Part shown: positions 32,743 through 57,684 of the stretch, in pieces
How the letters are laid out: each line of letters opens with the position of its first letter
How positions within the stretch are numbered: the stretch's first letter is position 1
NCBI GenBank assembly: GCA_016782495.1
Contig: JADHYL010000001.1
Location: 34,360 to 98,359, forward strand
Direction of reading: 5' to 3'
From: Candidatus Omnitrophota bacterium
GTDB lineage: Bacteria > Omnitrophota > Gorgyraeia > JABMRN01 > RBG-13-46-9
Length of the DNA: 64,000 nt
The notes under the pieces: model-generated
The model's database searches: none
What the model was told of the DNA's origin: nothing
The model's input: only the letters and a program-made list of their open reading frames with translations
Made by a program: the position numbers and the translations under genes

Positions 32743-32747
32743 ACATG

Positions 32748-40539: not shown

Positions 40540-40931
40540 CTACCGCTTTTTTCTTCTTTTTCCTGGCAGCCACGGCAATAAGGCGTATGCGGTATGGCTT
40601 TCAAGCGTGTTTTGCCTATTTTCTTTTTGCAGCTCATGCAAAAACCGTATTCCCCGTCTTCCATACGTCTTAGGGCCTCGTCTATTTTCATGAAAAGTTT
40701 CCTTTCGCCCGAAGCAAGCTGCAACAAAAGATCCGTCTCGTAAACGTCACTGGCCATATCCGCCATGTGATAGGCGTATCCGGAGAGATCCCCGGAGGCC
40801 TCTCGCTGAGTCTTCTTCAGCGTTTCGTTTGTCAGGTGGTTTATACCTTCCAGTAGATTTATCTTTTTCTTTATTAAAAGGTCTCTGTAAGATTTTAGTT
40901 CCTTTTTGTTGAGTTTTTTCTTCTTCGGCAT
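40536..40931 (-). CDS. DksA/TraR-family C4 zinc-finger protein. The start is at the MPKKKK ATG, which has a perfect AAGGAGG ribosome-binding site.
   Basis: Coiled-coil followed by CMSC-x17-CRGC. Located between ileS and lspA, as in many genomes. Confidence 0.7.
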   Translation of the reverse strand: MPKKKKLNKKELKSYRDLLIKKKINLLEGINHLTNETLKKTQREASGDLSGYAYHMADMASDVYETDLLLQLASGERKLFMKIDEALRRMEDGEYGFCMSCKKKIGKTRLKAIPHTPYCRGCQEKEEKSGR

Positions 40932-40945: not shown

Positions 40946-43780
40946 TTATGTTTTTGCATTGCCAATGACGCCTGCGCATCGTGAGCAAATGTCCCGAAAA
41001 TCTTTATTGCTACCAACCGTCCCGCTGTAGTTCCAGCACCTCTGGCACTTCATGCCGTCGGCCGTTTCGACCGATACCCATAAAGGCAAATTTTCACTCT
41101 TGGCCAAATTTTTATTCATGCTATCCGATATCTCGACCTGTGAGCTTATTAAAAATGCCGGCAGGGTTTTCGCATTCTCTTTTAAAAATGCTTTAAGGTC
41201 ATTCTTGTCGCTATATAAGATGACCTTTGCGTCTAAAGAGCTGCCGATCTCGTTTGAGATTCTTTTTGCCTCCAAAGCCTTTAAAACTTCTTCGCGGACC
41301 CCAAGAAGGCGTGACCACTTTTCGTCGAGTGTTTTGTCTTTCCACTTTTTTAATGCCTTATCCTTCCAGTGCCACGAGCTTAAATGAATCGATTTTTCTT
41401 TGGACTTAAGCGCCTGCCAGGCCTCTTCTGTAGTAAAAGACAGAATCGGCGCAAGTATTTTTAAGAGCGCGATCAAAATCTCATGCAAAACCGTCTGACA
41501 CGAACGTCGTTCCGGCGAACCCTTCCCAAAAGTATACAGTCTGTCCTTTAAAATGTCCAGATAGAGGCTTGAAATTTCATAAACACAGAAATTATATGCC
41601 GAGCGGAATATTTTGTAGAAGGTGTAGTCGCGATAATTCTCATCCGCTTCCTCGATGAGCCGCGCAAGCCTGGAAAGCATCCAGCGGTCTATCTCCACCA
41701 TGTTTTCGATTTTTACACAATCTTTTTCGGGATTAAAGTCGTAGGTGTTGCCAAGAAGATACCTGAAGGTGTTTCGGATTTTTCTATAAGCGTCGGCTAA
41801 TCTCTCGAGGATCTCTTCCGAAAGCCTTACGTCATCGTGGTAGTTGCTGGAGGCAACCCAGAGTCTCAAAATGTCTGCACCGTATTTTTTCATTATATCC
41901 TGCGGGGAGATAACGTTGCCGAGACTTTTTGACATCTTCTTCCCTCCTCCGTCAACGACAAAGCCGTGGGTAAAAACACTTTTGTATGGAGCCTCGTCTT
42001 CTATGGCTCGAGAAATTATTAACGATGACTGGAACCAACCGCGATGTTGATCAGAACCTTCTAAATAAAGTTCGCACGGAAAATCAAGCTTATTCTTTTC
42101 TTTTAAAACAGACTTATAGCTTGTGCCCGATTCGAACCATACGTCAATTATATCTTTTTCTTTACGAAGATCCTTGGAGCCACATTTTTTGCATACCATT
42201 CCTTTCGGCAACAGGTCTTTTTCATTTTTAACAAACCATGCGTCACAACCTTCCTTGTCGATGATTTTGGCAATGTGCTCTATCGTTTTATAATCCAAGA
42301 TGGTTTCTTTGCACTTTGTGCATTTGAAAGCGATGATTGGTACCCCCCAATATCTCTGCCGCGAAAGGCACCAGTCAGGTCTATTTTCTACCATAGCGGA
42401 TATACGACTTTTTCCTGCTGGGGGATACCATTTAACCTCTTTGTTGACAGAATCAAGCATTCTTTTTCGTAAGTTTTTGTGGTCTATGCTAACGAAATAT
42501 TGTTCTGTTGCTCGAAAGATTATTGGTTTTTTACATCTCCAACAGTGTGGATACGAATGTTCCATCTGTTCGGATAACAATAACGCTTTTTCCTTTTTGA
42601 GTCGCTCTATGATTTTCGGGTTTGCCTTATACATGTTTAAACCGCTAAATTCTCCACATGAATCGTCAAAAACGCCTTTTGAATTTACCGGCATTATCAT
42701 GGGCAGGTTATATTTTTTACCCGTAAGGTAGTCTTCCTGGCCATGGCCGGGCGCGGTGTGCACACAGCCGGTTCCTTCTTCAGACGATACATAATCTGCA
42801 AGCACAACTTTTGATTCTCGCTCGATAAACGGGTGTTTAGTGCAAAAATTTTCAAGTTTTCTGCCTTTTGTTATATGTAAAATTTTATATTTTTTTCCTA
42901 ACTTTTTCATTGTCACATCAACTAGTGACTCCAGCATTATCCGCAATTCGCCATCAACTTCACATGTAACATAGCTTAAATCGGGATGAACAGCTATGGC
43001 AACATTTCCTAAAAGCGTCCACGGTGTCGTTGTCCAAATAATAAAATATGCATTATCTAATTGCTGCGGAGATAAAGGAAAAAATATGGCGTTCAGAGTA
43101 TCTTGGCTTCCATGTTTTGGCTTTTCTTTCTTTAGTAGTTTGAATTTAACATAAATCGAAGGTGAGGTACGATTTTCGTATTCTACCTCCGCTTCCGCAA
43201 GCGCAGTTTCGCAAGCAGTGCACCAGTTTACCGGCTTTAAATCTTTATAAACATAACCTTCTTTTACCAGTTTACCAAATGCGCGAACGCAAGAGGCTTC
43301 GTATCTGGGACTTAATGTAAGGTAGGGATTATCCCAATCGCCAAAAATACCGAGGCGTTCAAATTCTTCCCTTTGCGTTTTCACAAACTTAAGCGCATAG
43401 TCTTTGGCCTTTTTGCGGAATTTCACCTGATCGATATCATATTTCGAGATGCCGAGCTCTTTGAAAAGCTGGTGTTCCACCGGAAGTCCGTGGCAGTCCC
43501 AGCCCGGCACAAAAGGCGAATCATACCCTTTCATCGTATAAAATTTTACAACGATGTCTTTTAAGATCTTGTTGAGAACGTGACCCATATGAATATGGCC
43601 GTTGGCGTATGGAGGGCCGTCGTGGAGAATGAATTTCTCTTTGCCTTCTCGCACCTTTCTTATGGCACTATAGATTTTTTCCTTATCCCAAAATTTTAGC
43701 ATGGGAGGCTCTTTCTGGAGCAAATTTGCCTTCATGCCAAATTCGGTCTTTGGTAAGTTTAACGTGTTTTTATAGTTCAT
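40946..43780 (-). CDS. ileS: Isoleucyl-tRNA synthetase, type 1, with a C-terminal zinc-binding region.
   Basis: HMGH and KMSKS motifs. C-terminal CxxC...CxxC. 944 aa. Confidence 0.95.
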   Translation of the reverse strand: MNYKNTLNLPKTEFGMKANLLQKEPPMLKFWDKEKIYSAIRKVREGKEKFILHDGPPYANGHIHMGHVLNKILKDIVVKFYTMKGYDSPFVPGWDCHGLPVEHQLFKELGISKYDIDQVKFRKKAKDYALKFVKTQREEFERLGIFGDWDNPYLTLSPRYEASCVRAFGKLVKEGYVYKDLKPVNWCTACETALAEAEVEYENRTSPSIYVKFKLLKKEKPKHGSQDTLNAIFFPLSPQQLDNAYFIIWTTTPWTLLGNVAIAVHPDLSYVTCEVDGELRIMLESLVDVTMKKLGKKYKILHITKGRKLENFCTKHPFIERESKVVLADYVSSEEGTGCVHTAPGHGQEDYLTGKKYNLPMIMPVNSKGVFDDSCGEFSGLNMYKANPKIIERLKKEKALLLSEQMEHSYPHCWRCKKPIIFRATEQYFVSIDHKNLRKRMLDSVNKEVKWYPPAGKSRISAMVENRPDWCLSRQRYWGVPIIAFKCTKCKETILDYKTIEHIAKIIDKEGCDAWFVKNEKDLLPKGMVCKKCGSKDLRKEKDIIDVWFESGTSYKSVLKEKNKLDFPCELYLEGSDQHRGWFQSSLIISRAIEDEAPYKSVFTHGFVVDGGGKKMSKSLGNVISPQDIMKKYGADILRLWVASSNYHDDVRLSEEILERLADAYRKIRNTFRYLLGNTYDFNPEKDCVKIENMVEIDRWMLSRLARLIEEADENYRDYTFYKIFRSAYNFCVYEISSLYLDILKDRLYTFGKGSPERRSCQTVLHEILIALLKILAPILSFTTEEAWQALKSKEKSIHLSSWHWKDKALKKWKDKTLDEKWSRLLGVREEVLKALEAKRISNEIGSSLDAKVILYSDKNDLKAFLKENAKTLPAFLISSQVEISDSMNKNLAKSENLPLWVSVETADGMKCQRCWNYSGTVGSNKDFRDICSRCAGVIGNAKT

Positions 43781-43782: not shown

Positions 43783-44682
43783 TTAAAAGCGTGTAAGTGC
43801 CTTAAATTTTTTGATTCGTTTCGCAATATCCGCTTTGCCAATAGATGCCAGGCGGTTTAGACTGAAATCCTCGACCGCAAAGGTTGCCATCACGCTCCCG
43901 TATACAACCGCCTTTCGTAGGACCTCTTTGTTTACTGTCTTTTGGGTTGCCAGATACCCCATGAGGCCCCCCGCAAAGGTGTCTCCCGCTCCTGTGGGAT
44001 CAAAAATCGATTCCAGCAAATATGCGGGCGTGCTAAAAACAGAATTGCCCGAAAAAAGGAGACTCCCGTGCTCTCCCTTTTTTATGATAACGGTTCGGGG
44101 ACCGATCTTTAGTATCGCCTTCGCAGCCCTCGGGAGGCTTGCTTCTCCGGTAAGCTGTTTTGCCTCTGACTCGTTCAGTAAAAAAATATTGACTTTCTTA
44201 AGAAGCTTTATCAAATCCCTGCGCCTCTCTCTTATCCAGTAATTCATGGTGTCAGACGCAACTAGTCTCGGATTTGCCATGCGGTTTAAAACTTTTATCT
44301 GGAGCTTCGGGTCAATATTTGCAAGAAACACATATTTGCTATTCCTATATTCTTGCGGAATATACGGATTAAATTCCGAAAGCACGTTTAAGTGAGTAGC
44401 GATTGTTTTCGGATCGCCGAAATCCCAGCCGTATTCCCCCTCCCACCTGAAGGTCTTCCCTTTTTTGACTGACAGGCCTTTTAAGTCTATACCTTTTCGC
44501 TTGAAAAAATTTATATGCTTTGCAGGGAAATCGTTCCCGACTACGGCAACCAAATTCACGGGACTAAAAAAACTTGCGCTCACGGAAAAATAGGTCGCTG
44601 ACCCGCCCAGTATCTCTTTTCGCTTTCCGAAAGGGGTTTTTACCGTGTCAAGCGCTACGGAGCCGACAACCAGTATGCTCAT
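43783..44682 (-). CDS. PfkB-family (ribokinase-like) carbohydrate or nucleoside kinase.
   Basis: DPTGAGDTFAGG C-terminal motif. 299 aa. Adjacent to mtnP. Confidence 0.75.
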   Translation of the reverse strand: MSILVVGSVALDTVKTPFGKRKEILGGSATYFSVSASFFSPVNLVAVVGNDFPAKHINFFKRKGIDLKGLSVKKGKTFRWEGEYGWDFGDPKTIATHLNVLSEFNPYIPQEYRNSKYVFLANIDPKLQIKVLNRMANPRLVASDTMNYWIRERRRDLIKLLKKVNIFLLNESEAKQLTGEASLPRAAKAILKIGPRTVIIKKGEHGSLLFSGNSVFSTPAYLLESIFDPTGAGDTFAGGLMGYLATQKTVNKEVLRKAVVYGSVMATFAVEDFSLNRLASIGKADIAKRIKKFKALTRF

Positions 44683-45539
44683 TTTACATATTTCCCGATT
44701 AGGATATCCAATTTCTTCTTTACATCGCGCGGAATGACTTTGTGGTCCGTCAAGATCGCGTGTTTAAGGGCGTCCTTGCAAGCGCAGCTTCGCCTCTCAT
44801 CGATACGCGTTATGGCATCTTTTAATATACTTTTTGCGTTCTCGACGTTTCTCGTAAGATTCTCCAAAATCCCCTCGACGCTTACAGTTTCTTCGGTCTG
44901 GTGCCAGCAGTCGTAATCGGTAACAGCCGCTAGCGTGGCGTAACAGATCTCGGCTTCCCGTGCCAGGCGCGCTTCGGTCATGTTCGTCATGCCGATTATA
45001 TCCATGCCCCAACTTCTGTAAAGATTCGATTCCGATAACGTTGAAAATTGCGGCCCTTCCATATTAATGTAGGTTCCGCCAAAATGGACATCCAGTTTTT
45101 TCTCTTTTACTACGTTGTATAAAAGATTTGCCAGATTCTCGCATACAGGGTGGGCAAATCCTATGTGGGCCACTATGCCGCTGTCAAAAAACGTATATTT
45201 ACGGGCCTGGGTGGTTCTGTCCACAAATTGTAACGGAATAACAAAATCCAATGGTTTTATTTCTTCTTTCAGGGAACCACATGCCGAAACAGAGATAAGC
45301 CATTCCACGTCTAATTTCTTCATCCCGTAAATATTGGCCCTGTAGTTTATGTGGGTCGGGCTTATGCGGTGCGCCTTGTCGTGACGGGGCAGGAAAACGA
45401 CTTCTTTTCCGTCTAAGGTGCCTATAACATATTCGCTAGAAGGGTCTCCGAAGGGGGTATTTATCTTCCGGGTTTCTTTTACCTTCAAGCCCTCGATGTG
45501 GTAAAGGCCGCTTCCGCCGACAACTCCGATTCTACCCAT
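44679..45539 (-). CDS. mtnP: S-methyl-5'-thioadenosine phosphorylase (PNP/MTAP family).
   Basis: GRIGVVGGSGLY, the MTAP-type phosphate-binding and purine-binding segments, and a C-terminal Cys-rich tail. 286 aa. Confidence 0.8.
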   Translation of the reverse strand: MGRIGVVGGSGLYHIEGLKVKETRKINTPFGDPSSEYVIGTLDGKEVVFLPRHDKAHRISPTHINYRANIYGMKKLDVEWLISVSACGSLKEEIKPLDFVIPLQFVDRTTQARKYTFFDSGIVAHIGFAHPVCENLANLLYNVVKEKKLDVHFGGTYINMEGPQFSTLSESNLYRSWGMDIIGMTNMTEARLAREAEICYATLAAVTDYDCWHQTEETVSVEGILENLTRNVENAKSILKDAITRIDERRSCACKDALKHAILTDHKVIPRDVKKKLDILIGKYVK

Positions 45540-45550: not shown

Positions 45551-45772
45551 TTATTGTACAATCTCCACAACCTTACTTTTTGACCTTAAACCACTTAATA
45601 TCCTGACTCTGTTCTTTTTTGTTCCAAAGTATTCGGCAAGCATCTCCGTGAGCTTTTGATTTGCCCTGCTTTCGATTGCCGGTTGGTGCATATAAATTTT
45701 ATAAGAATTCCCGCCTAATTTTACTATCTCTTCTTTTGACGCCCTTGGCTGAACTCTAAGGTGTATCTTCAT
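45551..45772 (-). CDS. yggU: YggU/DUF167 family protein. Start at MKIHLRV, forming an ATGA overlap with the yggT stop.
   Basis: KIHLRVQPRASKEEIV...YKIYM..PAIE..AN. Confidence 0.65.
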   Translation of the reverse strand: MKIHLRVQPRASKEEIVKLGGNSYKIYMHQPAIESRANQKLTEMLAEYFGTKKNRVRILSGLRSKSKVVEIVQ

Positions 45773-46071
45773 TAGTGCATTAACCGCATGGCGTAGTGGC
45801 TCAGAACTCCGACGACAAAACTTCTTAAAAACCACAGAACCATGAAAGCCAAAATCGGCGAGAAATCTATGGGACCTGCTTGCAGTGGAAGCCTGCGAAA
45901 TGGCGCGAGGATCGGTTCTGTTATCCTGAACAGGATCTGGACGATTTCACTATAGGGATTAACACCGAACCAGGACAGGATAATCCTTATCACCAGCAAA
46001 AAATACAGGACGTTGAAAATCATGTTAAAGAGGTAGGCGAGGCTTGCGAGTAACTGTCCGAGTATATACAT
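45772..46071 (-). CDS. yggT: YggT/Ycf19 family membrane protein.
   Basis: 99 aa with two transmembrane helices, in the conserved yggS-proC-yggT context. Confidence 0.75.
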   Translation of the reverse strand: MYILGQLLASLAYLFNMIFNVLYFLLVIRIILSWFGVNPYSEIVQILFRITEPILAPFRRLPLQAGPIDFSPILAFMVLWFLRSFVVGVLSHYAMRLMH

Positions 46072-46127: not shown

Positions 46128-46940
46128 CTATAAATTCCTCCCTCGAAGGGTCGAAAGCTCTCTTGACTTTTTTGCTGCGGCCGTCACAGCCCTCACCACA
46201 AGGCGCTTAAATTCTTTTGATTTCAGAATCTTTAATGCCGCCTCGGTAGTTCCCCTTTTCGACGTTATGCGCTTTCTTAAGACATCCGGCGTAAGTTTCA
46301 AACTATCCAGCAATGCTCCACTTCCAACTAAAGTCGCGGCTGCAAGCCTTGCGGCGGCCTCTTTCTTTATTCCGAACCTTACCGCAGCATCCTCAAGAAG
46401 CTCCGTTAAATAGAAATAATAAGCCGGACCGCTTCCTATAATCGCGGTTACGGCATCCATCTTTGTTTCATCAATCTCCATTACCTCGCCTATCGAAGAA
46501 AAGATCTTTTGCACGAACGCCTTGTTTTTTACTGCCTTGTTATGGGCAAGGCATGTTATGCTTTTTCCGGCCAGTGCCGCCATGTTCGGCATGGCGCGCG
46601 TTAAGGCGATTTTGCTGTTATTAATCATCGCGCCGATTTGTGAGAGCGTGACTCCGGCCATAATGGAAACCAAGTGCTTGGAATTATCAAGTTCCCCTTT
46701 GATTGAACCAAACAAACCCTTGGAATCCTGGGGCTTTACGACTATAATAATGAAGTTACACTTTTTTGCGATTTCGATATTTGTGCTCATGCGAGCGCCG
46801 AATTTTTTATAAAGCTCCCTCGTTTTATACGAATCCCTGTCGCTTATGTAAACGGTATTAAACGGCACGACTTTTTTTGACAGAATGCCGCTTGCAATGG
46901 CGCTACCCATATTTCCGCAACCGATTATCCCTATCCTCAT
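46128..46940 (-). CDS. proC: Pyrroline-5-carboxylate reductase.
   Basis: MRIGIIGCGNMGSAIASGIL Rossmann N-terminus. 270 aa. Confidence 0.9.
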   Translation of the reverse strand: MRIGIIGCGNMGSAIASGILSKKVVPFNTVYISDRDSYKTRELYKKFGARMSTNIEIAKKCNFIIIVVKPQDSKGLFGSIKGELDNSKHLVSIMAGVTLSQIGAMINNSKIALTRAMPNMAALAGKSITCLAHNKAVKNKAFVQKIFSSIGEVMEIDETKMDAVTAIIGSGPAYYFYLTELLEDAAVRFGIKKEAAARLAAATLVGSGALLDSLKLTPDVLRKRITSKRGTTEAALKILKSKEFKRLVVRAVTAAAKKSRELSTLRGRNL

Positions 46941-46968: not shown

Positions 46969-47625
46969 TTAGGCGGAAAATATCGCGCTACCTATGCGTA
47001 CCATGGTAGCGCCTTCTTCTACAGCAACCTCAAAATCCTGTGTCATACCCATTGAAAGTTCTTTCAGCCTGTGGGCATTCGCCAATTCTTTCAATTTTCT
47101 GAAATAAGGGCGTGTGACTTCGGCATCAGCTACAAGAGGTGCCATTGTCATCAAGCCTAGTACGTTTAGGTGTTTCAATGATCGGGTTTCTTCTAAAAAA
47201 TTTTCTATATCATTGGGCTTGATACCGAATTTACTTCCCTCACCCGAAACATTGACCTCCAGAAGAATATCCTGAACTTTGTTGTTTTTCGCGGCCTCCC
47301 GGTCTAATATATATGCTAATCTTACGCTATCAACGGAGTGAATAAGCGAAAATATCCTGACCGCTTCCCTTACCTTGTTCGACTGAAGGTGACCTATCAT
47401 GTGCCATGCAAGCACATGGGAATTCAATAAGTTCCTCTTTAATAAGGCTTCTTTTACGCGATTTTCACCGATGTCGGCGACACCAGCCTCTACTGCCTCG
47501 CGCACCTGGTCGATCTTGGCTTCCTTCGTAACGACCACGATTTTTACGCTTTCGAGGTCGCGACCTACCCTTTCTGCGGCAGCTTTTATCCTTTCTTTCA
47601 CTCGAGTGAGGTTTTCTTTTACCAT
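46969..47625 (-). CDS. yggS: YggS/PLPHP pyridoxal-phosphate homeostasis protein.
   Basis: 218-aa alanine-racemase-N fold. The lysine-containing motif (VVVTKEAK) and the C-terminal R.G are present. Confidence 0.85.
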   Translation of the reverse strand: MVKENLTRVKERIKAAAERVGRDLESVKIVVVTKEAKIDQVREAVEAGVADIGENRVKEALLKRNLLNSHVLAWHMIGHLQSNKVREAVRIFSLIHSVDSVRLAYILDREAAKNNKVQDILLEVNVSGEGSKFGIKPNDIENFLEETRSLKHLNVLGLMTMAPLVADAEVTRPYFRKLKELANAHRLKELSMGMTQDFEVAVEEGATMVRIGSAIFSA

Positions 47626-47634
47626 TTTGACGGT

Positions 47635-47711
47635 ATCCCGAATGTAGAAACATCTTTTAAAGTATCATCGGGATCCCGAAGATACTTTAAAAGAAGAATA
47701 TCTTATTCGGG
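47635..47711 (-). repeat. 77-nt near-perfect palindrome centred on TCGGGATCCCGA, located between the ftsA stop and the yggS start.
   Basis: The arms share TCCCGAAT, ATCTTTTAAAGTATC/GATACTTTAAAAGA and TCGGGA. Confidence 0.7.
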
Positions 47712-47761
47712 ATAGGGTAGCACATAAGTTTTCTAATGTCAATTGAAAATGGAAATTGGAA

Positions 47762-48823
47762 TTAGAAGTAGCTTTCGTAGATATCGTGAATCTTGCGGAA
47801 GGCTTTGCGAATCGGGTTCTTGTACCGACCGGAGGTCTTATATTCTGTGGCTATCTGATTAATAAGTCCGATCGTTGAGGTGTGAATAATTGCTTCTTGC
47901 GAGTTTAAATTGTGTCCTGCGTTTCTTGCGATTCCTATTCTCGCCGGCACCCCGAGCAGTTTTTCCGTCTCTTCGATAGCACCCTCAAGGAGTGCGCCCC
48001 CGCCTGTTACAACGGCGGAAGAAAAATTATTCTTGCCAGCGGCTAGACCAGCAAACACCTCTTTTAACAGTGCGGTTAACTTCTCCTTGTTTACGCGCAT
48101 TTTATCGTCCAGAATAGCGCTTGCGCCCTTCTTTATAATATGAGCGCTTTTTAGCATGCTGTTCTTAAAAATAAGCTCCTCGGTCAACGAATCGCCTATA
48201 TCGAGCAATAATACGCCGTTTTCCTTTTCTTGCCCGGTCAAAACGCCGTTTGCGGAAGCGATGCCGGAAAGATGTATTCCGTCCAAAAGAAGCCCGGCAT
48301 GGTCTATGCATTTGGTAATACTTTGCAGTTTTGATTGGCTTGCCGTCGCGATAAATGCCTCTACTTCCATTTTTATACCGTAAAGGCCTACGGGATTTCT
48401 GATGCTTGATGCCCCGCCATCAATGTAAAAACCCCTTACCGCTTTATCTATGACAATCCTGTCAAGCGGAACCTTCACCATGGCCGCGATTTCCAGGCAC
48501 CTTTTGACATCCCTTTTTGTAATTTCGCGTGGTATCTTAGATAGCGGGGCCATGCCACGTGCAATGTCCATCCGTACGTCAGCACTCTTGGTCGTGACAA
48601 AAACGTTTTTAATCCTTTTTTGCCGGTGTCGCTGCAACTTGCACACTACGGAATTTATGTCTTCGACGGCTTTATCCATATCCGTTATCTCTCCACCGCT
48701 TATGCCCCGCGAATATAAATTCTCGAGCGACAGGATATTGACTCGGCCATCCTTCCGCACGCTGGCCGAAACTGCGGCGATCTTGTTCGAACCCAAATCT
48801 ATAACCGTAACTAACTTTTTCAT
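47762..48823 (-). CDS. ftsA: Cell division protein FtsA. Start at MKKLVTVIDLG; the track ORF extends to 48931.
   Basis: Actin/SHS2 fold motifs (VIDLGSNKI, DIGDSLTE, VTGGGALLEG). Follows ftsQ. Confidence 0.88.
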   Translation of the reverse strand: MKKLVTVIDLGSNKIAAVSASVRKDGRVNILSLENLYSRGISGGEITDMDKAVEDINSVVCKLQRHRQKRIKNVFVTTKSADVRMDIARGMAPLSKIPREITKRDVKRCLEIAAMVKVPLDRIVIDKAVRGFYIDGGASSIRNPVGLYGIKMEVEAFIATASQSKLQSITKCIDHAGLLLDGIHLSGIASANGVLTGQEKENGVLLLDIGDSLTEELIFKNSMLKSAHIIKKGASAILDDKMRVNKEKLTALLKEVFAGLAAGKNNFSSAVVTGGGALLEGAIEETEKLLGVPARIGIARNAGHNLNSQEAIIHTSTIGLINQIATEYKTSGRYKNPIRKAFRKIHDIYESYF

Positions 48824-48830
48824 ACCCATC

Positions 48831-49607
48831 CTACCTCGGCCCGATAACAACGTCCTTAAATCTGAGATCCAGGTATTTGATATTCTTTTTGTCGAGATCT
48901 GGATTTTGAAGAGTCGTCTTGAGCATCTCAAGCCTTTTGCGAAAGTCTTCGCCCCCTATTTTCACTTCTATAGTGTCGTCAATGTAAAAAGAAATATTTT
49001 TGTAATTTGAAACATCAATCGTGGTCAGGTTGTAGTCGGAGAGTATAGAGCTTTCTTTAAGGGCGTCCAAAAGTAAGAACGCACTTTCTAATTGGCGGCT
49101 TTTCAAGTTCTCTCCCACGCGGGGCCTTGCCCAGGCGGAAAATCCTATTATAGTAGGGAGTTTGCCGCTTTTTATGCCCGGCGATAATATCATTCCGGTC
49201 CGGTCAACGGGAAAATATCTCCGGGCTTTTATCCGGGCGACGGGAATTCGTGGGATGACATCTATTTCCAGCCTGTTCGGCAGAACCCTTTTGACGACCG
49301 CATTTTTGACGGTCGGATAGTCATGTTTTATCCTGGAGGACAAAGCATTGATATTAATATCAAAAATATTCCGCCCTTTGTACAGCCGCAATAAATCATG
49401 CCGGTCGAGTCCGGAAGCGTAGCTTAAATCGTTTACCTGGATGTGCTCCAGTTTAAAATAAGACGAATTTCTAAAAAATAAAAATACTGTTAAAATTAAA
49501 ATAAAGGCTACTAAAAAAGGCAGAATTTTCTTTGTTACGGCTTTTGCCTTTGCCGGTTCGATTCTCTTTGGTCCGGGTCTCCGTTTTTTTACATTATCCT
49601 TGGCCAT
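48831..49607 (-). CDS. ftsQ: Cell division protein FtsQ/DivIB.
   Basis: N-terminal basic region, a transmembrane helix, and POTRA-like and beta domains. 258 aa. Position is ddl-ftsQ-ftsA. Confidence 0.75.
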   Translation of the reverse strand: MAKDNVKKRRPGPKRIEPAKAKAVTKKILPFLVAFILILTVFLFFRNSSYFKLEHIQVNDLSYASGLDRHDLLRLYKGRNIFDININALSSRIKHDYPTVKNAVVKRVLPNRLEIDVIPRIPVARIKARRYFPVDRTGMILSPGIKSGKLPTIIGFSAWARPRVGENLKSRQLESAFLLLDALKESSILSDYNLTTIDVSNYKNISFYIDDTIEVKIGGEDFRKRLEMLKTTLQNPDLDKKNIKYLDLRFKDVVIGPR

Positions 49608-49633: not shown

Positions 49634-49700
49634 CCTTGACATTTATGATGTCAAGGGTATCTTCTATAAGTTTACCCTCCGAATGGTCGAATTGAACCCC
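49634..49700 (-). repeat. Second copy of the hairpin repeat (CCTTGACAT, 5 nt, ATGTCAAGG, then GGT..CTTCTATAA..TT..CCCTCCGAA.GGTCGAA). It overlaps the ddl stop codon.
   Basis: About 80% identical over roughly 60 nt to 46095-46160. Confidence 0.7.
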
Positions 49701-50607
49701 TCCTGTACGCCAGCTCTACCAGCTTAAGACACAGATCTTCAAAGGTTATACCCGCTTTCGCGGCCGCCTTCGGTAAAAGGCTGCGCTGGGTCATGCCAGG
49801 AATCGTGTTTATCTCCAATACGTAAATGTTCCCGCCGGAATCCATGCGCATGTCAACGCGGGAAAAATCCCTGCAACCAAGCGCTTTATGCGCCTTTAGC
49901 GCCAATTCTTGAGCCCGTTTTGAATCTTCTTCCTTTAATTCTGCTGGAACAATATATTTCGTACCTTCATCTAAATACTTGGCGTCAAAATCGTATACAT
50001 TGTGTTTCGTAACGATCTCAATGATGGGAAGCGCTCTCTCCTCCAGGATGCCGACAGTCAGTTCCCTGCCGTGTATATATTCTTCGACGATGGCCGTCTT
50101 GCCGTAACCGAAAGCCATCTCCAGAGCTTGCCTCGCATGGATTTTATCACTGACTATCGATAGCCCTATGCTGGATCCCTCATGTTGGGGTTTAACTACA
50201 AAAGGTACCTCAAGGCTTGCTGTAATGTCCACTTCTTCAGCATTCTGCCTGACTATCATATATTTAGGCACGCTCAAGCCATTTGTCAGAAATAGTTCAC
50301 GCGAAGCAATTTTATCCAGCGCAAGCCTCGAGGCCCGAGCGCCTGAGCCCGTGTAGGGCAAATTTGATTCTTCCAATATTGTCTGGACCGATCCGTCTTC
50401 GCCAAACTTGCCGTGCAGGGCGATAAATACCAGAGCCGCGTCGATATTTTTTATCTTCGAGTGAAAGTCGCTATCAACATCCAGAAAATCCACCTCTTGG
50501 CGTTGTCTCTTAAGTGCGTCAAAAACGGCCCGCCCGCTTTTAAGGCTGATCTCACGCTCGCTGGAAGGCCCTCCGGCAAGCACAACTATCTTACCATAGC
50601 TCGCCAT
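49672..50607 (-). CDS. ddl: D-alanine--D-alanine ligase.
   Basis: MASYGKIVVLAGGPSSEREISLKSGRAV and an ATP-grasp fold. 311 aa. Confidence 0.9.
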   Translation of the reverse strand: MASYGKIVVLAGGPSSEREISLKSGRAVFDALKRQRQEVDFLDVDSDFHSKIKNIDAALVFIALHGKFGEDGSVQTILEESNLPYTGSGARASRLALDKIASRELFLTNGLSVPKYMIVRQNAEEVDITASLEVPFVVKPQHEGSSIGLSIVSDKIHARQALEMAFGYGKTAIVEEYIHGRELTVGILEERALPIIEIVTKHNVYDFDAKYLDEGTKYIVPAELKEEDSKRAQELALKAHKALGCRDFSRVDMRMDSGGNIYVLEINTIPGMTQRSLLPKAAAKAGITFEDLCLKLVELAYRRGSIRPFGG

Positions 50608-50616: not shown

Positions 50617-51501
50617 CTAAATTATTATAATTTCCGGTACCAGATTGACGTTAAAACGCGATTTAACGCGTGTTTTCACAAAACTGATAAGGCGCAGTAT
50701 ATCTTCTGCCTTTGCATTTTTTAAGTTAATGATAAAATTCGCATGTTGTTTTGAAATCTCGGCACCGCCCATTCTTTTGCCCTTTAAACCAAGCATGTCG
50801 ATATACTGTGCTGCCGAGCTTTTGTTGTTTGGATTTCGAAAAATACACCCGGCGCTAAAGTGGCCGAACGGCTGTTCCCACTTTTTAGTTTTTAAAAGAT
50901 CCCTCTTTCTTTTTAACAGCATCTTTCTCTTATTTTTTTTCAGCCGCAGTGTTGCCTCTAATATTATATATCTACTTAAATTCGATTGTCGATAGCCAAA
51001 CCTTATATCTTTTTGTCTGATAATCCTCGTTTTGCCGCCGGCTTTATCCATAAGCTTTAATTTTTCCAGACAATCCGATATGTTTCCCCTGTATCCGGAA
51101 TTCATAAAAATAGCTCCTCCGAGCGTCGCCGGGATTCCCACAAGCCCCTCTATTCCGCCGAGTCCCTTGCGGCAAGCAGCGTTTACTAAAACACCGAGCT
51201 CGGCCCCTGCGCCGGCTGTAACCCTTGTGCCGTCAAACCTAACCTTTTTAAAATGTTTGTTCCCGAGGTGAATCGCTATGCCGTCAAATCCTTTATCGCG
51301 GAATAAGATATTACTACCCATGCCGAGCACAAGTATCTTTCTTTTGTTTGACCTGGCAAACCTTAAAATTTCCCGTAGTTCATCTTCGCTCGAGGGCTCG
51401 ACCCATACTTTACAGGGCCCGCCTACATGAAATGTTGTATGCCTTGCGAGAGGTTCGTTAAAACGGACTTTACCTCGCACCTTTGGAAATTTGTTTTTCA
51501 T
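50617..51501 (-). CDS. murB: UDP-N-acetylenolpyruvoylglucosamine reductase.
   Basis: FAD-binding PCMH domain (TTFHVGGP...ILVLGMGSNIL). 294 aa. Confidence 0.88.
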   Translation of the reverse strand: MKNKFPKVRGKVRFNEPLARHTTFHVGGPCKVWVEPSSEDELREILRFARSNKRKILVLGMGSNILFRDKGFDGIAIHLGNKHFKKVRFDGTRVTAGAGAELGVLVNAACRKGLGGIEGLVGIPATLGGAIFMNSGYRGNISDCLEKLKLMDKAGGKTRIIRQKDIRFGYRQSNLSRYIILEATLRLKKNKRKMLLKRKRDLLKTKKWEQPFGHFSAGCIFRNPNNKSSAAQYIDMLGLKGKRMGGAEISKQHANFIINLKNAKAEDILRLISFVKTRVKSRFNVNLVPEIIII

Positions 51502-52888
51502 TTCTCTTTTTCATCTCTTGCAAAAGTTTGGGGGCTGTGCCTCCGATATCCCCCGCACCCATAATTAAAACAAGATCTCCCCTTTTTAGCTTTCCGGAGA
51601 GATATTTGGGTATTTTGTCCTTGTCCAATAACTTAACGGGGATAGACCTGTCTTTTAGCATGATCTCGTATATACTCCGGGAGCTGGCACCTTTTATTTT
51701 GTCCTCGCTGGCAGGATACACCTCGGTCAGTATGACTTCGTCCGAACCCGCAAAAGAGGCCGAAAACTCTTTATAAAATGATTTTGTCCTTGTGTACCTG
51801 TGCGGCTGAAAGACCGTTATAAGCCTTTCGGGTTTAAGTGAATATGCGGCGGAAATTGTCGCCTTGATCTCCGTGGGGTGGTGGGCGTAATCCTCAACTA
51901 TCTTCGCTCCGCCAACATCCCCTATAAGCTCAAACCTTCTTTTAACGCCTTTATAACCCGAAAGCGCGCGTTTCATCGTATCGAACCCTATTCCGAACTC
52001 AATGCCCAGCGCAATCACCGCCACCGCATTTAAAACATTATGAACCCCGGGCATGTTCAGCGCAAAGCGACCTATTTTTTCTCCTCTCTTAAAACAGTCA
52101 AATAGGATTTTGAACGTGTCGATTTTTACGTTTGCCGCATATACGTCCGCTTCTTCAGAGAATCCGAAGCTTACGGTTTTTCCTTTGAAAATCTTTGCGA
52201 GTTTCCTGAGGCGCCTGTCTTCGACTTTGTAGAAAAAAGTAGATCGAGAAGACTGGCCGGCGAGAAACTTCCTGAACGCATTCGCAAGATGCGCCTCGTC
52301 TTGGTAGTGCTCCAGGTGTTCTTTTTCAAGATTGGGCATAATAATGTGGGTAGCCTTTAGGATAACAAATCTGCCATCGCTTTCGTCTACCTCCGCTACG
52401 AGTGTTTTACTCTTTCCGGATTTGGCATTTCCTCCAAAGTGCGGGGATTCTCCACCTATTAAAACGGTGGGATCGGCCCCCGCTTCCTCCAGAAGAAGCG
52501 ATACCATCGCGGTAATTGTAGTTTTTCCGTGGGTTCCGGCAACTGCCACGACGTCTATATTCCCGTCCATAACCGTCTTTAAAAGCTCGATCCTCGATAT
52601 AATAAGAATCTTCTTTTCTTGGGCTGCCAGAATCTCCGGATTGTTCATGCGAATGCTTGACGAATATACAACAATATCCTGATCTTTTATGTAGGACTTA
52701 TCATGGCCTATGTTGACTATAATGCCTTTTCTGCGCAATTTCTTCACAATGCTCCCCTCGACAACATCCGAACCGCTCACTCTGCAACCTGACTCTTTTA
52801 AAATAAATGCCAGGCCACTCATGCCGATACCGCCTATGCCGATCATGTGAATTTTGCGGTTTTTTATCTGCAAGCTGCCGTCGTTCAC
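51470..52888 (-). CDS. murC: UDP-N-acetylmuramate--L-alanine ligase.
   Basis: IHMIGIGGIGMSGLA...AVAGTHGKTTITAM; Mur ligase domains. Confidence 0.9.
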   Translation of the reverse strand: MNDGSLQIKNRKIHMIGIGGIGMSGLAFILKESGCRVSGSDVVEGSIVKKLRRKGIIVNIGHDKSYIKDQDIVVYSSSIRMNNPEILAAQEKKILIISRIELLKTVMDGNIDVVAVAGTHGKTTITAMVSLLLEEAGADPTVLIGGESPHFGGNAKSGKSKTLVAEVDESDGRFVILKATHIIMPNLEKEHLEHYQDEAHLANAFRKFLAGQSSRSTFFYKVEDRRLRKLAKIFKGKTVSFGFSEEADVYAANVKIDTFKILFDCFKRGEKIGRFALNMPGVHNVLNAVAVIALGIEFGIGFDTMKRALSGYKGVKRRFELIGDVGGAKIVEDYAHHPTEIKATISAAYSLKPERLITVFQPHRYTRTKSFYKEFSASFAGSDEVILTEVYPASEDKIKGASSRSIYEIMLKDRSIPVKLLDKDKIPKYLSGKLKRGDLVLIMGAGDIGGTAPKLLQEMKKRNEKQISKGAR

Positions 52889-53967
52889 TTTAGCACTTCT
52901 TCCTTCAGCCTCTTTGCTCCGTCCACAACGCTAAGCCTCCCGGCGTTTTCCGCCAGAATTTTTCTCTTATCGGGATCGTCCATAAGTCCGATTATAAGGT
53001 TTTTTAATTCTTCGTTGGTGATGCGCTTTTCATCTCTGTAAATAGCGGCATTCTCTCTCGCAAAAAATTGTGCGTTAAAACGCTGGTTATTTTTTTCGTC
53101 GGGGTACGGTATGAGTATCATGGGTTTTTTGAATGCTGCCAGTTCAAAGACCGCTGCCGCGCCCGAGCGACTGATGGCCAGGTCGCATACGCTATATGCT
53201 TCATTTATGTCTTTTATAAATCCAAACACCTTGCCGTGTATGCCGTTTTCCTCGTAACGCTTCCGGATTTTCTCCACATTTTTTGGTCCAGCGATATGAA
53301 GAAGCTGCAAGCGTCTCTTTTTCTCGTCCGGCAGGAGGCCCACGCTTTTTGAAACCAGGTCATTCAGTGACCGTGCCCCCTGGCTGCCGCCCATAACGAG
53401 TATGGTCATTTTATCTTTTTCAAGACCGAGATCTAGAAATCCCTGAGGACCACAGTCTTCCAGGCTTTCCTTTCTCAAGGGATTTCCCGTAATAACGATA
53501 TTTCTATTGCGGAAATATTTTTTTGTCTCCGAAAAACTTATCGTAACTTTATCGACAAATCTATCAAGAAATCGATTTGTCCTGCCCGGAACTACGTTTT
53601 GCTCGTGGATAATCGTTTTTATGCCGATTAAAGCTGCCAATAAAACAATGGTGCCTCCGGTATATCCTCCAAAGCCGATAACCATACCCGGCCTGCAATT
53701 CGCAAGGATATACAAAGCGTGGAAACTATCGAGAATCAGCTTGAACGCAAAAATAAAAAACCGATATCCGAAATTATACGGCATCGGATTTGCAGAGAGA
53801 AATATTTTTTTATACTTTTTGTTTTCCAGTATGTTTCGATCAAGTTCTCTTCTGCTTGCCACAAAGATTATCTCGACCGCTTCACTCTCAAGCTCTTTTG
53901 CAAGCGAAACGGCGGGAAATATATGGCCTCCGCTTCCCCCGGATGCTATTAGTACTTTCATGCTCAT
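52885..53967 (-). CDS. murG: UDP-GlcNAc:undecaprenyl-PP-MurNAc-pentapeptide GlcNAc transferase.
   Basis: VLIASGGSGGHIFPAVSLA (GT28 N-terminal G-loop). 360 aa. Confidence 0.9.
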   Translation of the reverse strand: MSMKVLIASGGSGGHIFPAVSLAKELESEAVEIIFVASRRELDRNILENKKYKKIFLSANPMPYNFGYRFFIFAFKLILDSFHALYILANCRPGMVIGFGGYTGGTIVLLAALIGIKTIIHEQNVVPGRTNRFLDRFVDKVTISFSETKKYFRNRNIVITGNPLRKESLEDCGPQGFLDLGLEKDKMTILVMGGSQGARSLNDLVSKSVGLLPDEKKRRLQLLHIAGPKNVEKIRKRYEENGIHGKVFGFIKDINEAYSVCDLAISRSGAAAVFELAAFKKPMILIPYPDEKNNQRFNAQFFARENAAIYRDEKRITNEELKNLIIGLMDDPDKRKILAENAGRLSVVDGAKRLKEEVLK

Positions 53968-54138: not shown

Positions 54139-55218
54139 CTACTCCCTCATCGCATTCAACATAACTCCCAGTGCAACCATGTGGAATACAAGCGAAGAAC
54201 CTCCATAGCTGATAAATGGCAAGGGCAGTCCTTTCGTCGGAAGCGCACCCACGCTCACGCCTATATTTACGAGCGCCTCAAAGGCGATCATGTTTGTTAT
54301 CCCGAATATAAGAATTTTATTAAAGGGTCTCTGCTCCTTGAAGAACGCTCGCATGCCCTGCCACACAAAAGCGCCGAAGAGAATAATAATGCAAGATGCA
54401 CCGATAAACCCGAGTTCCTCGCCAATTATGGAAAATATAAAATCCGTATGCGACTCGGGAAGATAGAAAAGTTTTTGCTTAGATTGCCCTAGCCCTACGC
54501 CGAAAAGCCCGCCAGATCCAAGCGCAAGAAATGATTGGATAATCTGAAAACCCGCGCCCTTCTTGTCATGCCAGGGGTTTAAAAAAATGAGCATTCGTTT
54601 TCTCCGATAGGGCACGCTGAATATTAAATAATATAGAACCGGAAGTCCTGGAAGGACTGTCATAAAAAGGTGTTTTAATTTCCCGCCGGCAATAAAAATA
54701 ATGAGAAACCCGATGAAAAAAATCGATATGGCTGTTCCGAGGTCCGGCTGAAGCAAAACCATAGAGCACGCGAGAATAACCACCGAGATACAAGGAATAT
54801 AACCAGAATATAGATCCTTTATCCTGTAACCTTTTCTGGACAAAAAATCCGCCAGGTATAAGATAAGGGTGAATTTTGCGAACTCTGATGGCTGTAAGCT
54901 AAGCGCCCCCATTCTGAACCAGCGCCGTGCTCCGCCGACCGATGCGCCTATGCCTGGAATAAGAACAAGCAACAAAAGTAAAAGTGACCCGAGCATTAAG
55001 GTTCTGGAGGATTTTTTGATTACATCGAGATTTACCGACATAGCGCATAACATAAGCAAAAATCCACCGAACAGAAACCAGAGGTGTTTTTTTAGGAAAA
55101 ATGCGCTGTTTCCGAATTTTTCATAGGCATATATCGCGCTTGAGCTGTATATCATGACAACGCCGAAAAAAAGCAATATAAGCGCAATTATAAAAATGGA
55201 TCTTCTGATATTTGCCAT
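54139..55218 (-). CDS. ftsW: SEDS-family divisome glycosyltransferase FtsW.
   Basis: 359-aa FtsW/RodA family protein in the murD-ftsW-murG position. Confidence 0.85.
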   Translation of the reverse strand: MANIRRSIFIIALILLFFGVVMIYSSSAIYAYEKFGNSAFFLKKHLWFLFGGFLLMLCAMSVNLDVIKKSSRTLMLGSLLLLLLVLIPGIGASVGGARRWFRMGALSLQPSEFAKFTLILYLADFLSRKGYRIKDLYSGYIPCISVVILACSMVLLQPDLGTAISIFFIGFLIIFIAGGKLKHLFMTVLPGLPVLYYLIFSVPYRRKRMLIFLNPWHDKKGAGFQIIQSFLALGSGGLFGVGLGQSKQKLFYLPESHTDFIFSIIGEELGFIGASCIIILFGAFVWQGMRAFFKEQRPFNKILIFGITNMIAFEALVNIGVSVGALPTKGLPLPFISYGGSSLVFHMVALGVMLNAMRE

Positions 55219-55222: not shown

Positions 55223-56584
55223 TTAGCCTTTAGCCTTCAATCCCCGAACGGTCTTCTTGAAAATCTCGCCCCGCTCTTTATAGCTATCGAACATGTCAAA
55301 ACTCGAACACATGGGTGAAAGAAGCACGCACCCTTTGGGAGGCGCGCTTTCGTAGGCGGCCAGGACTGCTTCCTCGAGCGAATCTTTTTCCTCAACCTTT
55401 ACAAGCTTCTCAAAGAGATTCCTCATTTTCCGCCTTGTCTCGCCGATCAGGACGATTTTTTTTACATTCTTTTTCAAAGCGGGCAAAATCTTGCCGTAAG
55501 AGAGATTTTTATCCTTGCCGCCGGCTATGAGAACAGCCGGCTTCTGGAGGGACTCAAGCGCCCGACGGGTCGAATCCACATTTGTCGCTTTAGAATCATC
55601 TATAAATTCTATCCCGCCTATCGTTGCTATATTCTCGAATCGGTGCGCAAGCGGCTTAAACACCTTTACCACTTTTTCAATAGCATCCGGCCGTGCGCCC
55701 AACAAGGTGGCCGCCAAGGCGGATGCCAAAATATTCTCTAAATTATGCTCGCCTTTTAATGTGGAATCGCCGAGCGTAAACAGTTCTTTTGTTTTGCCCC
55801 TGAGAGATATTTTGACCGCGTTTTTATCAAGATATATTCCTTCGACTCTTTTCTTTCTGCTAAAATGAAAAAGGTGTGAGGCCATCTTCTTAGTTTTTCC
55901 CAGCTTCTGGAGATTTTTGTCGTCATAATTGAGTATGGTAATATCGTCGCCTCTTTGGTTTTTGAATATTCGCTTTTTGGCGTCAAAGTACGTTTTAAAA
56001 TCGCTGTACCTGTCCAGGTGGTCTTCCGCGATGTTGAGCATGACTGATATCTTCGGCCTGAAAAACGCTATCCATTCGAGCTGGAAAGAACTTGTTTCCA
56101 ATACGACCACTGTCCCTTTTTTGATATGCTCAACTTCGCCCGATAAGGAATTTCCTATGTTGCCACATACGCTAACGGGGAATTTGGCATTTCGCAGAAT
56201 TTCACCAAGGAGTGAAACAACGGTTGATTTTCCGTTCGTGCCGGTAACCGCTACGATGCGCCCCTTGCAGAAGTGGTACCCAAGCTCGAGTTCACTTATT
56301 AGGGGAATATTGTTTTCTCGCGCGTAGCGAATCGGCAGGGATGTCTTTTCCACGCCCGGGCTTACCACCAAGAGTTCTGTGTCGTGCAAAAAGGACTCGG
56401 TGTGCTTGGCAATTTCCAGATCTATATATTTTTCTTCGAGAAGCTTTGCGTTTTTTCTTATGTCTTCATTCTTGCTATTGTCCGTAACGGATACAATAGC
56501 ACCTTCTTTTTCGAGAAGTAAGGCACTTCCGATTCCGCTGTTTCCCAGCCCTACTACCGTAACTTTTTTATTCCGTAGATCCAT
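55223..56584 (-). CDS. murD: UDP-N-acetylmuramoylalanine--D-glutamate ligase.
   Basis: KVTVVGLGNSGIGSA...AVTGTNGKSTV. Confidence 0.9.
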   Translation of the reverse strand: MDLRNKKVTVVGLGNSGIGSALLLEKEGAIVSVTDNSKNEDIRKNAKLLEEKYIDLEIAKHTESFLHDTELLVVSPGVEKTSLPIRYARENNIPLISELELGYHFCKGRIVAVTGTNGKSTVVSLLGEILRNAKFPVSVCGNIGNSLSGEVEHIKKGTVVVLETSSFQLEWIAFFRPKISVMLNIAEDHLDRYSDFKTYFDAKKRIFKNQRGDDITILNYDDKNLQKLGKTKKMASHLFHFSRKKRVEGIYLDKNAVKISLRGKTKELFTLGDSTLKGEHNLENILASALAATLLGARPDAIEKVVKVFKPLAHRFENIATIGGIEFIDDSKATNVDSTRRALESLQKPAVLIAGGKDKNLSYGKILPALKKNVKKIVLIGETRRKMRNLFEKLVKVEEKDSLEEAVLAAYESAPPKGCVLLSPMCSSFDMFDSYKERGEIFKKTVRGLKAKG

Positions 56585-56595: not shown

Positions 56596-57684
56596 TTACA
56601 TTGCCTTCAACGTCGCCAATCCCAGAAAGACGAGTATAACGGCCGCTATCCAGAAACGTATCGTAATTTTACTCTCCGGCCAGCCCAAAAGTTGAAAATG
56701 GTGATGGAGCGGCGCCATCAAAAAGACCCTTCTTTTAAAAAGTTTAAATGACATAACCTGCATTATTACGCTTATGACTTCTGCAACAAATATCCCGCCG
56801 ATTATGAGCAAAAGAATCTCCTTCTTTATTAAAACGCTTACCACGCCGATCGCGCCTCCCAAAGGAAGCGATCCCGTATCGCCCATAAAAACCGTCGCGG
56901 GGTAAGAATTGAACCACAGAAATCCCAAGCAGCTACCTGCTATAACTGCGCAGAATACCGCAAGCTCACTGCTTCCCGGCAGGTAGTAGATGTTGAGGTA
57001 ACCGCTGAATTTTATATGCCCTGCAAGATAGCTTATTGCGCTATAGCTAAGCGCTATAAAACCTACGCAACCGATAGCAAGGCCGTCCAGGCCGTCGGTC
57101 AAATTTACGGCATTGCTCGTCCCGACAATAACAAGCGTAACAAACAAAATGTAAAATATCCCTAAGTTTACGAGCGCGTGCTTGAAAAACGGCACGTAAA
57201 GCGCGGTGGATATCTCGGGATCGAAATAGAGATACAGCGCAATTCCTGCGCCCAGAAGAAGTTGCCCTATGAATTTGGTTGTAGCGCTAAGCCCGCGCGA
57301 CCTTACCTTGATCAGCTTTATGTAATCATCGACAAAGCCGACTATGCCGAGCCAGAGGACGCTTATGAGACCAATAACAATAAAGCGATTATCGAGCCTG
57401 GCCCAGAGAAGCGTGGAAAATAGTATGGAGAGTATAATTATTATGCCCCCCATTGTCGGCGTGCCTTCCTTGTGCTTGTGGAGCTCGTAAAGATTTTCAA
57501 CGTATTCTTTCCTGGGCGAGTCACCTATTCTTAAATGTGAGAGCTTCCTTATTATAATCGGTCCTATTATGACGCTGAATAAAAATGCGGTTATACTGCC
57601 CATTGCGGCGCGAAAAGTAATATATTTGAATATATTAAATCCAAACCACAGATCCTTTAAGGGATACAATAAATGGTATAGCAT
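56596..57684 (-). CDS. mraY: Phospho-N-acetylmuramoyl-pentapeptide transferase.
   Basis: 362 aa, polytopic. MraY motifs (NAVNLTDGLDGLA, HHHFQL). Confidence 0.92.
   Translation of the reverse strand: MLYHLLYPLKDLWFGFNIFKYITFRAAMGSITAFLFSVIIGPIIIRKLSHLRIGDSPRKEYVENLYELHKHKEGTPTMGGIIIILSILFSTLLWARLDNRFIVIGLISVLWLGIVGFVDDYIKLIKVRSRGLSATTKFIGQLLLGAGIALYLYFDPEISTALYVPFFKHALVNLGIFYILFVTLVIVGTSNAVNLTDGLDGLAIGCVGFIALSYSAISYLAGHIKFSGYLNIYYLPGSSELAVFCAVIAGSCLGFLWFNSYPATVFMGDTGSLPLGGAIGVVSVLIKKEILLLIIGGIFVAEVISVIMQVMSFKLFKRRVFLMAPLHHHFQLLGWPESKITIRFWIAAVILVFLGLATLKAM

Follow-up and report, generated by a model that had tools for sequence, protein, structure and literature searches.

The window analysed here is a stretch of 64,000 nt from a Candidatus Omnitrophota metagenome-assembled genome (MAG; assembly GCA_016782495.1, contig JADHYL010000001.1, positions 34,360-98,359), a phylum placed by NCBI in the Planctomycetes-Verrucomicrobia-Chlamydiae (PVC) group, and it carries a division and cell wall (dcw) gene cluster in which ftsA is the last gene and ftsZ does not follow. 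The product of this ftsA is a short FtsA of 353 aa from which the FtsZ-binding subdomain, 2B, has been deleted, and we regard this loss in a conserved, dcw-linked FtsA as the most interesting result of the analysis. The deletion appears to be new; no mention of a 2B deletion in a conserved dcw-linked FtsA was found in the searchable literature. The FtsZ-less state of the Omnitrophota is already published at the level of the phylum, though barely discussed and elsewhere contradicted. Cell division in this lineage most likely proceeds without a conventional Z-ring.

A dcw-linked FtsA without subdomain 2B

Genes were assigned from the list of open reading frames (ORFs) together with Pfam and NCBIfam profiles. 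On the minus strand, the order mraZ-rsmH-ftsL-ftsI-murE-murF-mraY-murD-ftsW-murG-murC-murB-ddl-ftsQ-ftsA was obtained (Table 1), which is collinear with the canonical dcw cluster from mraZ through ddl, ftsQ and ftsA and departs from it after ftsA, where ftsZ does not follow. A preliminary description of this DNA had given the same gene order, which the ORFs and profiles bear out; its end coordinate of 48931 corresponds to the TTG of the longest possible ORF, which runs into ftsQ, whereas ftsA starts at the ATG at 48823, a start supported by the gene calls and by all homologues. The claim that the cluster stops at ftsA without ftsZ also stood up to motif, tblastn and profile hidden Markov model (HMM) searches of the window: a six-frame scan found no tubulin signature, tblastn with FtsZ from E. 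coli, Dependentiae and Auribacterota gave a best E of 0.8, and hmmsearch --max with the FtsZ profile on all six-frame ORFs gave a best E of 5.9. The same filter-free profile search over about 369 kb of Omnitrophota loci likewise gave no E below 5.9, and a protein search seeded with a Dependentiae FtsZ (locus L008), encoded beside the nearest canonical FtsA match (P0055), retrieved no Omnitrophota FtsZ.

The last gene of the cluster lies directly after ftsQ, and the AlphaFold2 model of its product (pLDDT 83.9, pTM 0.83) has the actin/HSP70-like ATPase fold with the inserted SHS2 subdomain (1C), in agreement with the PF02491 match (6.7e-12) and with Foldseek. In the Foldseek search of the PDB, the top 19 matches were all FtsA, ahead of PilM and MreB, with 7q6d and 7q6f as the best (TMq 0.79-0.81) and the T. 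maritima FtsA:FtsZ peptide complex 4A2A among the fold matches. The profile scores are lower than for a complete FtsA: TIGR01174 aligns with profile positions 2-234 of 371 only (1.5e-50; 172.4 bits against an equivalog cut-off of 175.85), and PF14450 reaches 25.6 against a cut-off of 31.8. A PilM identity was considered for this gene and rejected, with PilM_2 at 16.6 bits against a cut-off of 27 and a separate true pilM present in the window.

About 60 residues, corresponding to subdomain 2B and with it the site for the FtsZ C-terminal peptide, are missing from the protein. A profile of 32 family members compared with solved FtsA chains placed its positions 237-261 on residues 239-323 of the E. 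coli and Vibrio proteins, and when the short forms were aligned by MAFFT with the E. coli protein and long FtsA of the Omnitrophota, about 50 columns (approximately 261-311) were empty in every short form. In E. coli, the removal of 2B or of strands S12-S13 abolishes the interaction with FtsZ and causes filamentation (PMC4281207), and the FtsZ C-terminal peptide has been modelled near FtsA residues 234-245 and 294-304 (PMC10769210). These engineered forms and the short FtsA lack the same part of the protein; while the loss was engineered in E. coli, in the Omnitrophota clade it arose naturally, is ancient and has been conserved under selection.

The retained parts include subdomain 1C, which recruits late divisome proteins in model organisms (PMC4281207), the DxGxxK and GGGA motifs, and a C-terminal amphipathic helix ending in DIYESYF. 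The last 15 aa have a hydrophobic moment of 0.69, compared with 0.57 for the membrane-targeting sequence of E. coli FtsA, and the modelled helix is a putative membrane-targeting sequence. It had been proposed beforehand that the FtsA C-terminus be examined for adaptations; this suggestion came close, but the C-terminal helix proved intact, and the change is the deletion of 2B. Compared with canonical FtsA (E. coli and T. maritima; 7Q6D and 4A2A), the short form shares the position after ftsQ, the actin-like fold with 1C (TMq about 0.8), the adenosine motif GGGA and the C-terminal amphipathic helix. It differs in length (353 aa with about 23 residues replacing 2B, against about 410-440 aa with 2B), in the phosphate-2 loop (DIGDSLT against DIGGGT), in a TIGR01174 score just under the cut-off, and in having no ftsZ behind it, where canonical ftsA is followed by one.

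An exhaustive HMMER search over 1.84 billion representative proteins recovered the short FtsA in about 35 clusters at 50% identity, with lengths of 343-361 aa and end-to-end matches to the profile, whereas canonical FtsA (400-435 aa) matched the short profile in two parts, split near position 240. The nearest long forms carry an Omnitrophica annotation. In a rough neighbour-joining tree, the short forms fall into approximately one clade, which the long Omnitrophota FtsA P0209 adjoins, and a protein of 386 aa (P0264) shows an independent, partial reduction of 2B. Nearly all Omnitrophota-type FtsA, long or short (P0001, P0192-P0248, P0201-P0222), end in [D/E]xYF, a lineage signature at the tip of the putative membrane-targeting helix; among 44 Omnitrophota-type FtsA, Y352 is invariant and F353 near-invariant.

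The ftsA-yggS junction and the genes behind it

The junction between ftsA and yggS recurs in 10 other Omnitrophota loci, distant ones included. The shared order, murB-ddl-ftsQ-ftsA-yggS-proC-yggT-MTAP-(pfkB)-ileS-dksA-lspA-lgt, was found in L009, L010/L020, L015, L018, L021, L022, L024 and L025 at 41-63% FtsA identity, in L026, from a distant member of the phylum with a short FtsA (26% FtsA identity), and in L011, from Ca. Aquitaenariimonas noxiae, whose FtsA is of canonical length. The cluster also ends at ftsA, with other genes behind it, in L094 and L095, which represent a second Omnitrophota lineage with long FtsA, and in the closed 1.43-Mb chromosome CP070780.1 of assembly GCA_020346285.1 (L006/L017). 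Where yggS is absent from that place, genes encoding PilZ-domain proteins (c-di-GMP receptors) were seen at or near the 3′ side of ftsA (Table 1), possibly by coincidence.

For comparison with other phyla, a single FtsA-profile scan of species-representative genomes yielded 13 loci from Omnitrophota and 67 from elsewhere, including Peregrinibacteria, Dadabacteria and Thermodesulfobacteriota, 65 of which reach past ftsA. By tblastn, ftsZ was present in all of these 65, always directly downstream and about 100-700 nt past the aligned part of ftsA, and in none of the 13 Omnitrophota loci. The order ddl-ftsQ-ftsA-ftsZ was also observed in Ca. Ancaeobacter aquaticus of the Auribacterota, itself a PVC-group phylum; an Auribacterota FtsZ is encoded at L096 11282-12400. 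Together these results indicate that the missing ftsZ is specific to the Omnitrophota and old within the phylum. Four of the MAGs encountered (L018, L022, L024 and L034; CAZYPU01, CAYTQI01, CAZFLU01 and CAYIQH01) are third-party 'binchicken' assemblies (TPA) titled 'uncultured Planctomycetia bacterium'. They carry Omnitrophota-type dcw loci with a short FtsA and the same synteny, and their 'Planctomycetia' labels are probably wrong.

The spacer of 136 nt between ftsA and yggS had been described as palindromic, and it does contain an inverted repeat with directly abutting 21-nt arms (95% complementary) inside a perfect outer pair of 10 nt. The spacer RNA has a minimum free energy of -40.5 kcal/mol (z = -6.3), none of 200 shuffled sequences was as stable, and the hairpin is unique within the window. 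A scan of the spacer for consensus terminators and promoters returned nothing, and Rfam gave chance-level matches far below the gathering scores. A predicted sigma-70-type promoter of the yggS operon, with a 17-nt spacing that includes the TG of an extended -10, emerged from the comparison of loci: TTGACA-N17-TAnnnT is present in all 11 Omnitrophota ftsA-yggS spacers (the window, L009, L010, L011, L015, L018, L021, L022, L024, L025 and L026), 11-112 nt upstream of the yggS ATG, against an estimated chance expectation of about 0.1 matches across all spacers. Because this conserved promoter lies upstream of the hairpin, the latter falls within the predicted yggS leader, with the start of the transcript predicted near 47707; a terminator reading was rejected for the same reason and because no U-tract follows the hairpin. 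The conserved promoter further implies that the dcw transcription unit stops at ftsA and that a separate unit starts there. In four genomes (the window, L018, L022 and L024), the leader starts with ATCCCGAATGA and folds into a long hairpin near the yggS start codon, which possibly regulates yggS translation. In L010 (Omnitrophica RBG_13_46_9), the spacer has grown to about 730 nt (11060-11790), and short motifs of the GGTTTC or GATGTTGC kind are repeated in it, upstream of the promoter shared by all spacers.

Behind the spacer, TIGR00044, P5CR_dimer, YGGT and TIGR00251 confirmed the run yggS-proC-yggT-yggU that had been read from the sequence. The block from the MTAP-like gene to lgt has the same order in 10 other Omnitrophota loci; in the window, ileS is followed by a dksA/traR-like gene and lspA, and rluD comes next after lgt. 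In B. subtilis, the order is ileS-ylyA-lspA-rluD. Judged by gene order, the unit yggS-proC-yggT…ileS-lspA corresponds to the 'DCW2' cluster of Firmicutes, where DCW1 and DCW2 read …ftsA-ftsZ and ylmE-sepF-ylmG-ylmH-divIVA-ileS, respectively (PMC8136486). In both, the division genes are followed by ylmE (yggS), ylmG (yggT) and ileS, in this order, but the Omnitrophota block is without ftsZ, sepF, ylmH and divIVA and has proC, yggU, MTAP and pfkB interspersed. Neither sepF nor divIVA was found in this block, and only proC was called between yggS and yggT. The preliminary description had also remarked on the missing sepF; proC does occupy the place between yggS and yggT, but the absence itself is uninformative and was to be expected, since SepF is missing from all Gracilicutes but Fusobacteria (PMC8178401). 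The arrangement thus looks like DCW1 joined to DCW2 with the FtsZ-related genes ftsZ, sepF and divIVA specifically missing, a pattern that would fit loss in place better than random rearrangement.

Features of the window and neighbouring loci

Coordinates are collected in Table 1. In addition to the overlap of 32 nt between murC and murB, which are separate ORFs in the window, the two genes were found as one 740-aa fusion in the closed chromosome CP070780.1 (L006 6135-8357), with Mur ligase domains as well as FAD_binding_4 and MurB_C. A complete elongasome, mreB-mreC-mreD-PBP2-rodA, lies at 29954-35113, downstream of the dcw cluster and about 13 kb from it, so that with the dcw genes both pairs of SEDS protein and class B penicillin-binding protein (bPBP) are present (FtsW/FtsI and RodA/PBP2); this elongasome is a candidate alternative organiser of wall synthesis.

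A large cluster resembling a type IV pilus or type II secretion system (T2SS) occupies 9182-28413 on the minus strand. Among its products are three pilin-like proteins that carry N-methyl or PilX_N motifs (one has 715 aa), a secretin, PilO, PilM, PilC, two tandem PilB-type ATPases, PilT and a stand-alone MshEN-domain protein of 151 aa. The true pilM is at 17714-18733 (1.3e-47) and is followed by pilO and the secretin gene. Next to the cluster, at 28415-29845, lies a gene for a HAMP-GAF-GGDEF protein. An RNase G gene is situated amid the pilus genes. In the ORF list, the RNase E/G and secretin ORFs, at 12915-14540 and 14407-16059 on the minus strand, share 134 nt, and RNase G probably has its true start codon further downstream.

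Table 1. Features of the dcw region, its downstream block and the elongasome in the window, with PilZ-domain genes of other Omnitrophota loci
Feature	Position	Strand	Basis or remark
mraZ	63676-63999	-	Pfam; cut at window edge
rsmH	62602-63501	-	Pfam
ftsL	62215-62598	-	Position and N-terminal transmembrane segment only; no Pfam hit
ftsI	60496-62187	-	Pfam
murE	59019-60506	-	Pfam
murF	57693-59015	-	Pfam
mraY	56596-57684	-	Pfam
murD	55223-56584	-	Pfam
ftsW	54139-55218	-	Pfam
murG	52885-53967	-	Pfam
murC	51470-52888	-	Pfam
murB	50617-51501	-	Pfam
ddl	49672-50607	-	Pfam
ftsQ (258 aa)	48831-49607	-	POTRA_1 4.5e-10; FtsQ_DivIB_C 1.6e-9
ftsA, short form (353 aa), last dcw gene	47762-48823	-	SHS2_FTSA 6.7e-12
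Subdomain 1C (SHS2 insert), retained	48350-48577	-	PF02491; residues 84-159
2B deletion site	48044-48112	-	~23 residues (238-260) versus ~82 in E. coli FtsA (240-321)
C-terminal amphipathic helix, putative membrane-targeting sequence, retained	47765-47815	-	Model helix 337-352
ftsA-yggS spacer (136 nt)	47626-47761	-	Sequence
Predicted sigma-70-type promoter of yggS operon	47714-47742	-	-35 TTGACA 47737-47742; -10 TACCCT 47714-47719
Nested hairpin, predicted yggS 5′ leader	47634-47714	-	Outer arms 47634-47643/47705-47714; inner arms 47653-47673/47674-47694
yggS/ylmE	46969-47625	-	TIGR00044 1.6e-51
proC	46128-46940	-	P5CR_dimer 5.8e-32
yggT/ylmG	45772-46071	-	YGGT 7e-22
yggU	45551-45772	-	DUF167 (TIGR00251) 2.1e-19
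MTAP-like phosphorylase	44679-45539	-	Pfam
pfkB kinase	43783-44682	-	Pfam
ileS	40946-43780	-	Pfam
dksA/traR-like	40536-40931	-	Pfam
lspA	40096-40539	-	Pfam
lgt	39328-40086	-	Pfam
mreB	34040-35113	-	MreB_Mbl 1.5e-148
mreC	33226-34020	-	Pfam MreC
mreD	32748-33239	-	Pfam MreD
PBP2	31021-32742	-	Transpeptidase and PBP_dimer
rodA	29954-31024	-	FTSW_RODA_SPOVE
PilZ-domain genes downstream of ftsA	L006 11292-13183; L094 11234-11668; L095 1398-1790

Probable loss of ftsZ and a proposed mode of division

The absence of FtsZ from Planctomycetes, Omnitrophica and Chlamydiae was reported by Pende et al. in 2021 (PMC8178401). In that survey, FtsZ and SepF were absent (NA) from four of five 'Omnitrophica' genomes, namely Omnitrophus magneticus, RIFOXYB12_FULL_50_7, WOR_2 SM23_29 and GWA2_41_15, with the absences checked by TBLASTN (Supplementary Data 2), and FtsA was kept in three of these four (all but GWA2_41_15). 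The sole FtsZ-positive 'Omnitrophica' genome in the survey was OLB16, which NCBI taxonomy now places in Ca. Hinthialibacterota. Since the claim of an Omnitrophica FtsZ rested on this genome, its transfer to another phylum resolves the contradiction in the literature. The text of the main Omnitrophota genomics paper is silent on divisome (Fts), MreB and peptidoglycan genes (PMC10066038).

On this basis, the Omnitrophota probably lost ftsZ early in the history of the phylum and did not relocate it. For the genome studied here, we infer loss rather than relocation, and the phylum-wide absence of FtsZ is taken from the literature (PMC8178401). The preliminary description had left both courses open, a move of ftsZ to another site or an FtsZ-less lineage like some PVC bacteria, and the second is favoured by the placement of the Omnitrophota in the PVC group, the published absences, the reclassification of OLB16 and the lost 2B. 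As for the order of events, the departure of ftsZ from the cluster likely preceded the deletion of 2B in one large subclade, given that the long-FtsA genomes too are without ftsZ after ftsA.

Several points weigh against an FtsZ-less state. The sequence considered amounts to the 64-kb window of this genome and about 369 kb in total across Omnitrophota loci, which leaves room for an unlinked ftsZ. Two older reviews credit Omnitrophica with FtsZ (PMC5147048, PMC5945725), both resting on OLB16, and a 2025 article in iScience calls the dcw genes 'highly conserved' in Ca. Omnitrophota (PMC12283558), a general statement for which the supplements hold no per-genome Omnitrophota data. The long-FtsA Omnitrophota keep 2B even though their clusters are without ftsZ, so that 2B may have other roles, and the FtsA-centred mechanism outlined below is one that we infer.

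The alternative that survives best is an intact but unlinked ftsZ, with Z-ring division maintained through an anchor other than FtsA 2B and the last gene of the cluster lost by rearrangement. The extent of the sequence covered, the conservation ascribed to the dcw genes (PMC12283558) and the 2B of the long forms all speak for it, but HMM and TBLASTN searches were negative in four Omnitrophica genomes, from which SepF was missing as well (PMC8178401), the FtsZ-docking subdomain has been deleted in this clade, and the junction is ancient and phylum-wide; we therefore consider it unlikely. Much less probable is a highly divergent tubulin or FtsZ-like protein, invisible to standard FtsZ profiles, that partners the trimmed FtsA. 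Many large ORFs in Omnitrophota loci (e.g., L006) have no Pfam match, but the filter-free profile search found nothing better than chance-level scores in the window and the 369 kb, and the conserved junction holds no candidate. An assembly or binning artefact, in which ftsZ would have dropped out of a chimeric contig that fused the ftsA end to a yggS region from elsewhere, counts as refuted. The source is a MAG, but the FtsA is 100% identical to the ISS90_00435 protein of a Candidatus Omnitrophica MAG, and five ENA and Logan samples yielded the identical locus in independent assemblies, so that the junction is no chimera; over 10 species share it at FtsA identities of 26-66%, in one case in the context of a closed chromosome.

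If ftsZ was indeed lost, division is likely to be FtsZ-independent, with membrane-bound FtsA engaging FtsQ, FtsL, FtsW and FtsI via 1C. In the sequence of steps that we propose, ftsZ would have been lost from the cluster while FtsA was kept with its actin-like core, 1C and the C-terminal amphipathic helix; 2B, on which the C-terminal tail of FtsZ docks, would then have been deleted in the large subclade to which this genome belongs; and, with no Z-ring present, membrane-bound FtsA would organise septal peptidoglycan synthesis by FtsQ, FtsL, FtsW and FtsI. The MreBCD-PBP2-RodA system encoded nearby may also play a part, with MreB acting as in Chlamydia. A bolder proposal, which we offer tentatively and at somewhat less than even weight, is a natural 'FtsA-only' divisome, in which a membrane-anchored polymer of FtsA, without 2B and with 1C, would alone position and activate FtsQ, FtsL, FtsW and FtsI.

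The comparison with the FtsZ-less Chlamydiota and Planctomycetota bears on this point. These phyla likewise belong to the PVC group, are without FtsZ or SepF (PMC8178401) and keep peptidoglycan synthesis genes and MreB, but they are also without FtsA (PMC8178401; PMC12283558), whereas the Omnitrophota keep a conserved ftsA in a complete, collinear dcw cluster. An 'FtsA-only' divisome would accordingly differ from both the planctomycetal system and the MreB-driven system of Chlamydiota, and would represent a third type of division independent of FtsZ.

The Omnitrophota are abundant, ultra-small and uncultured, and they combine a full collinear dcw cluster that includes FtsA with an apparent absence of FtsZ. 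The 2B-less FtsA represents a natural separation-of-function allele that points to FtsZ-independent roles of FtsA in membrane binding, polymerisation and 1C-mediated recruitment, and it is a concrete protein that can be tested in vitro or in E. coli.

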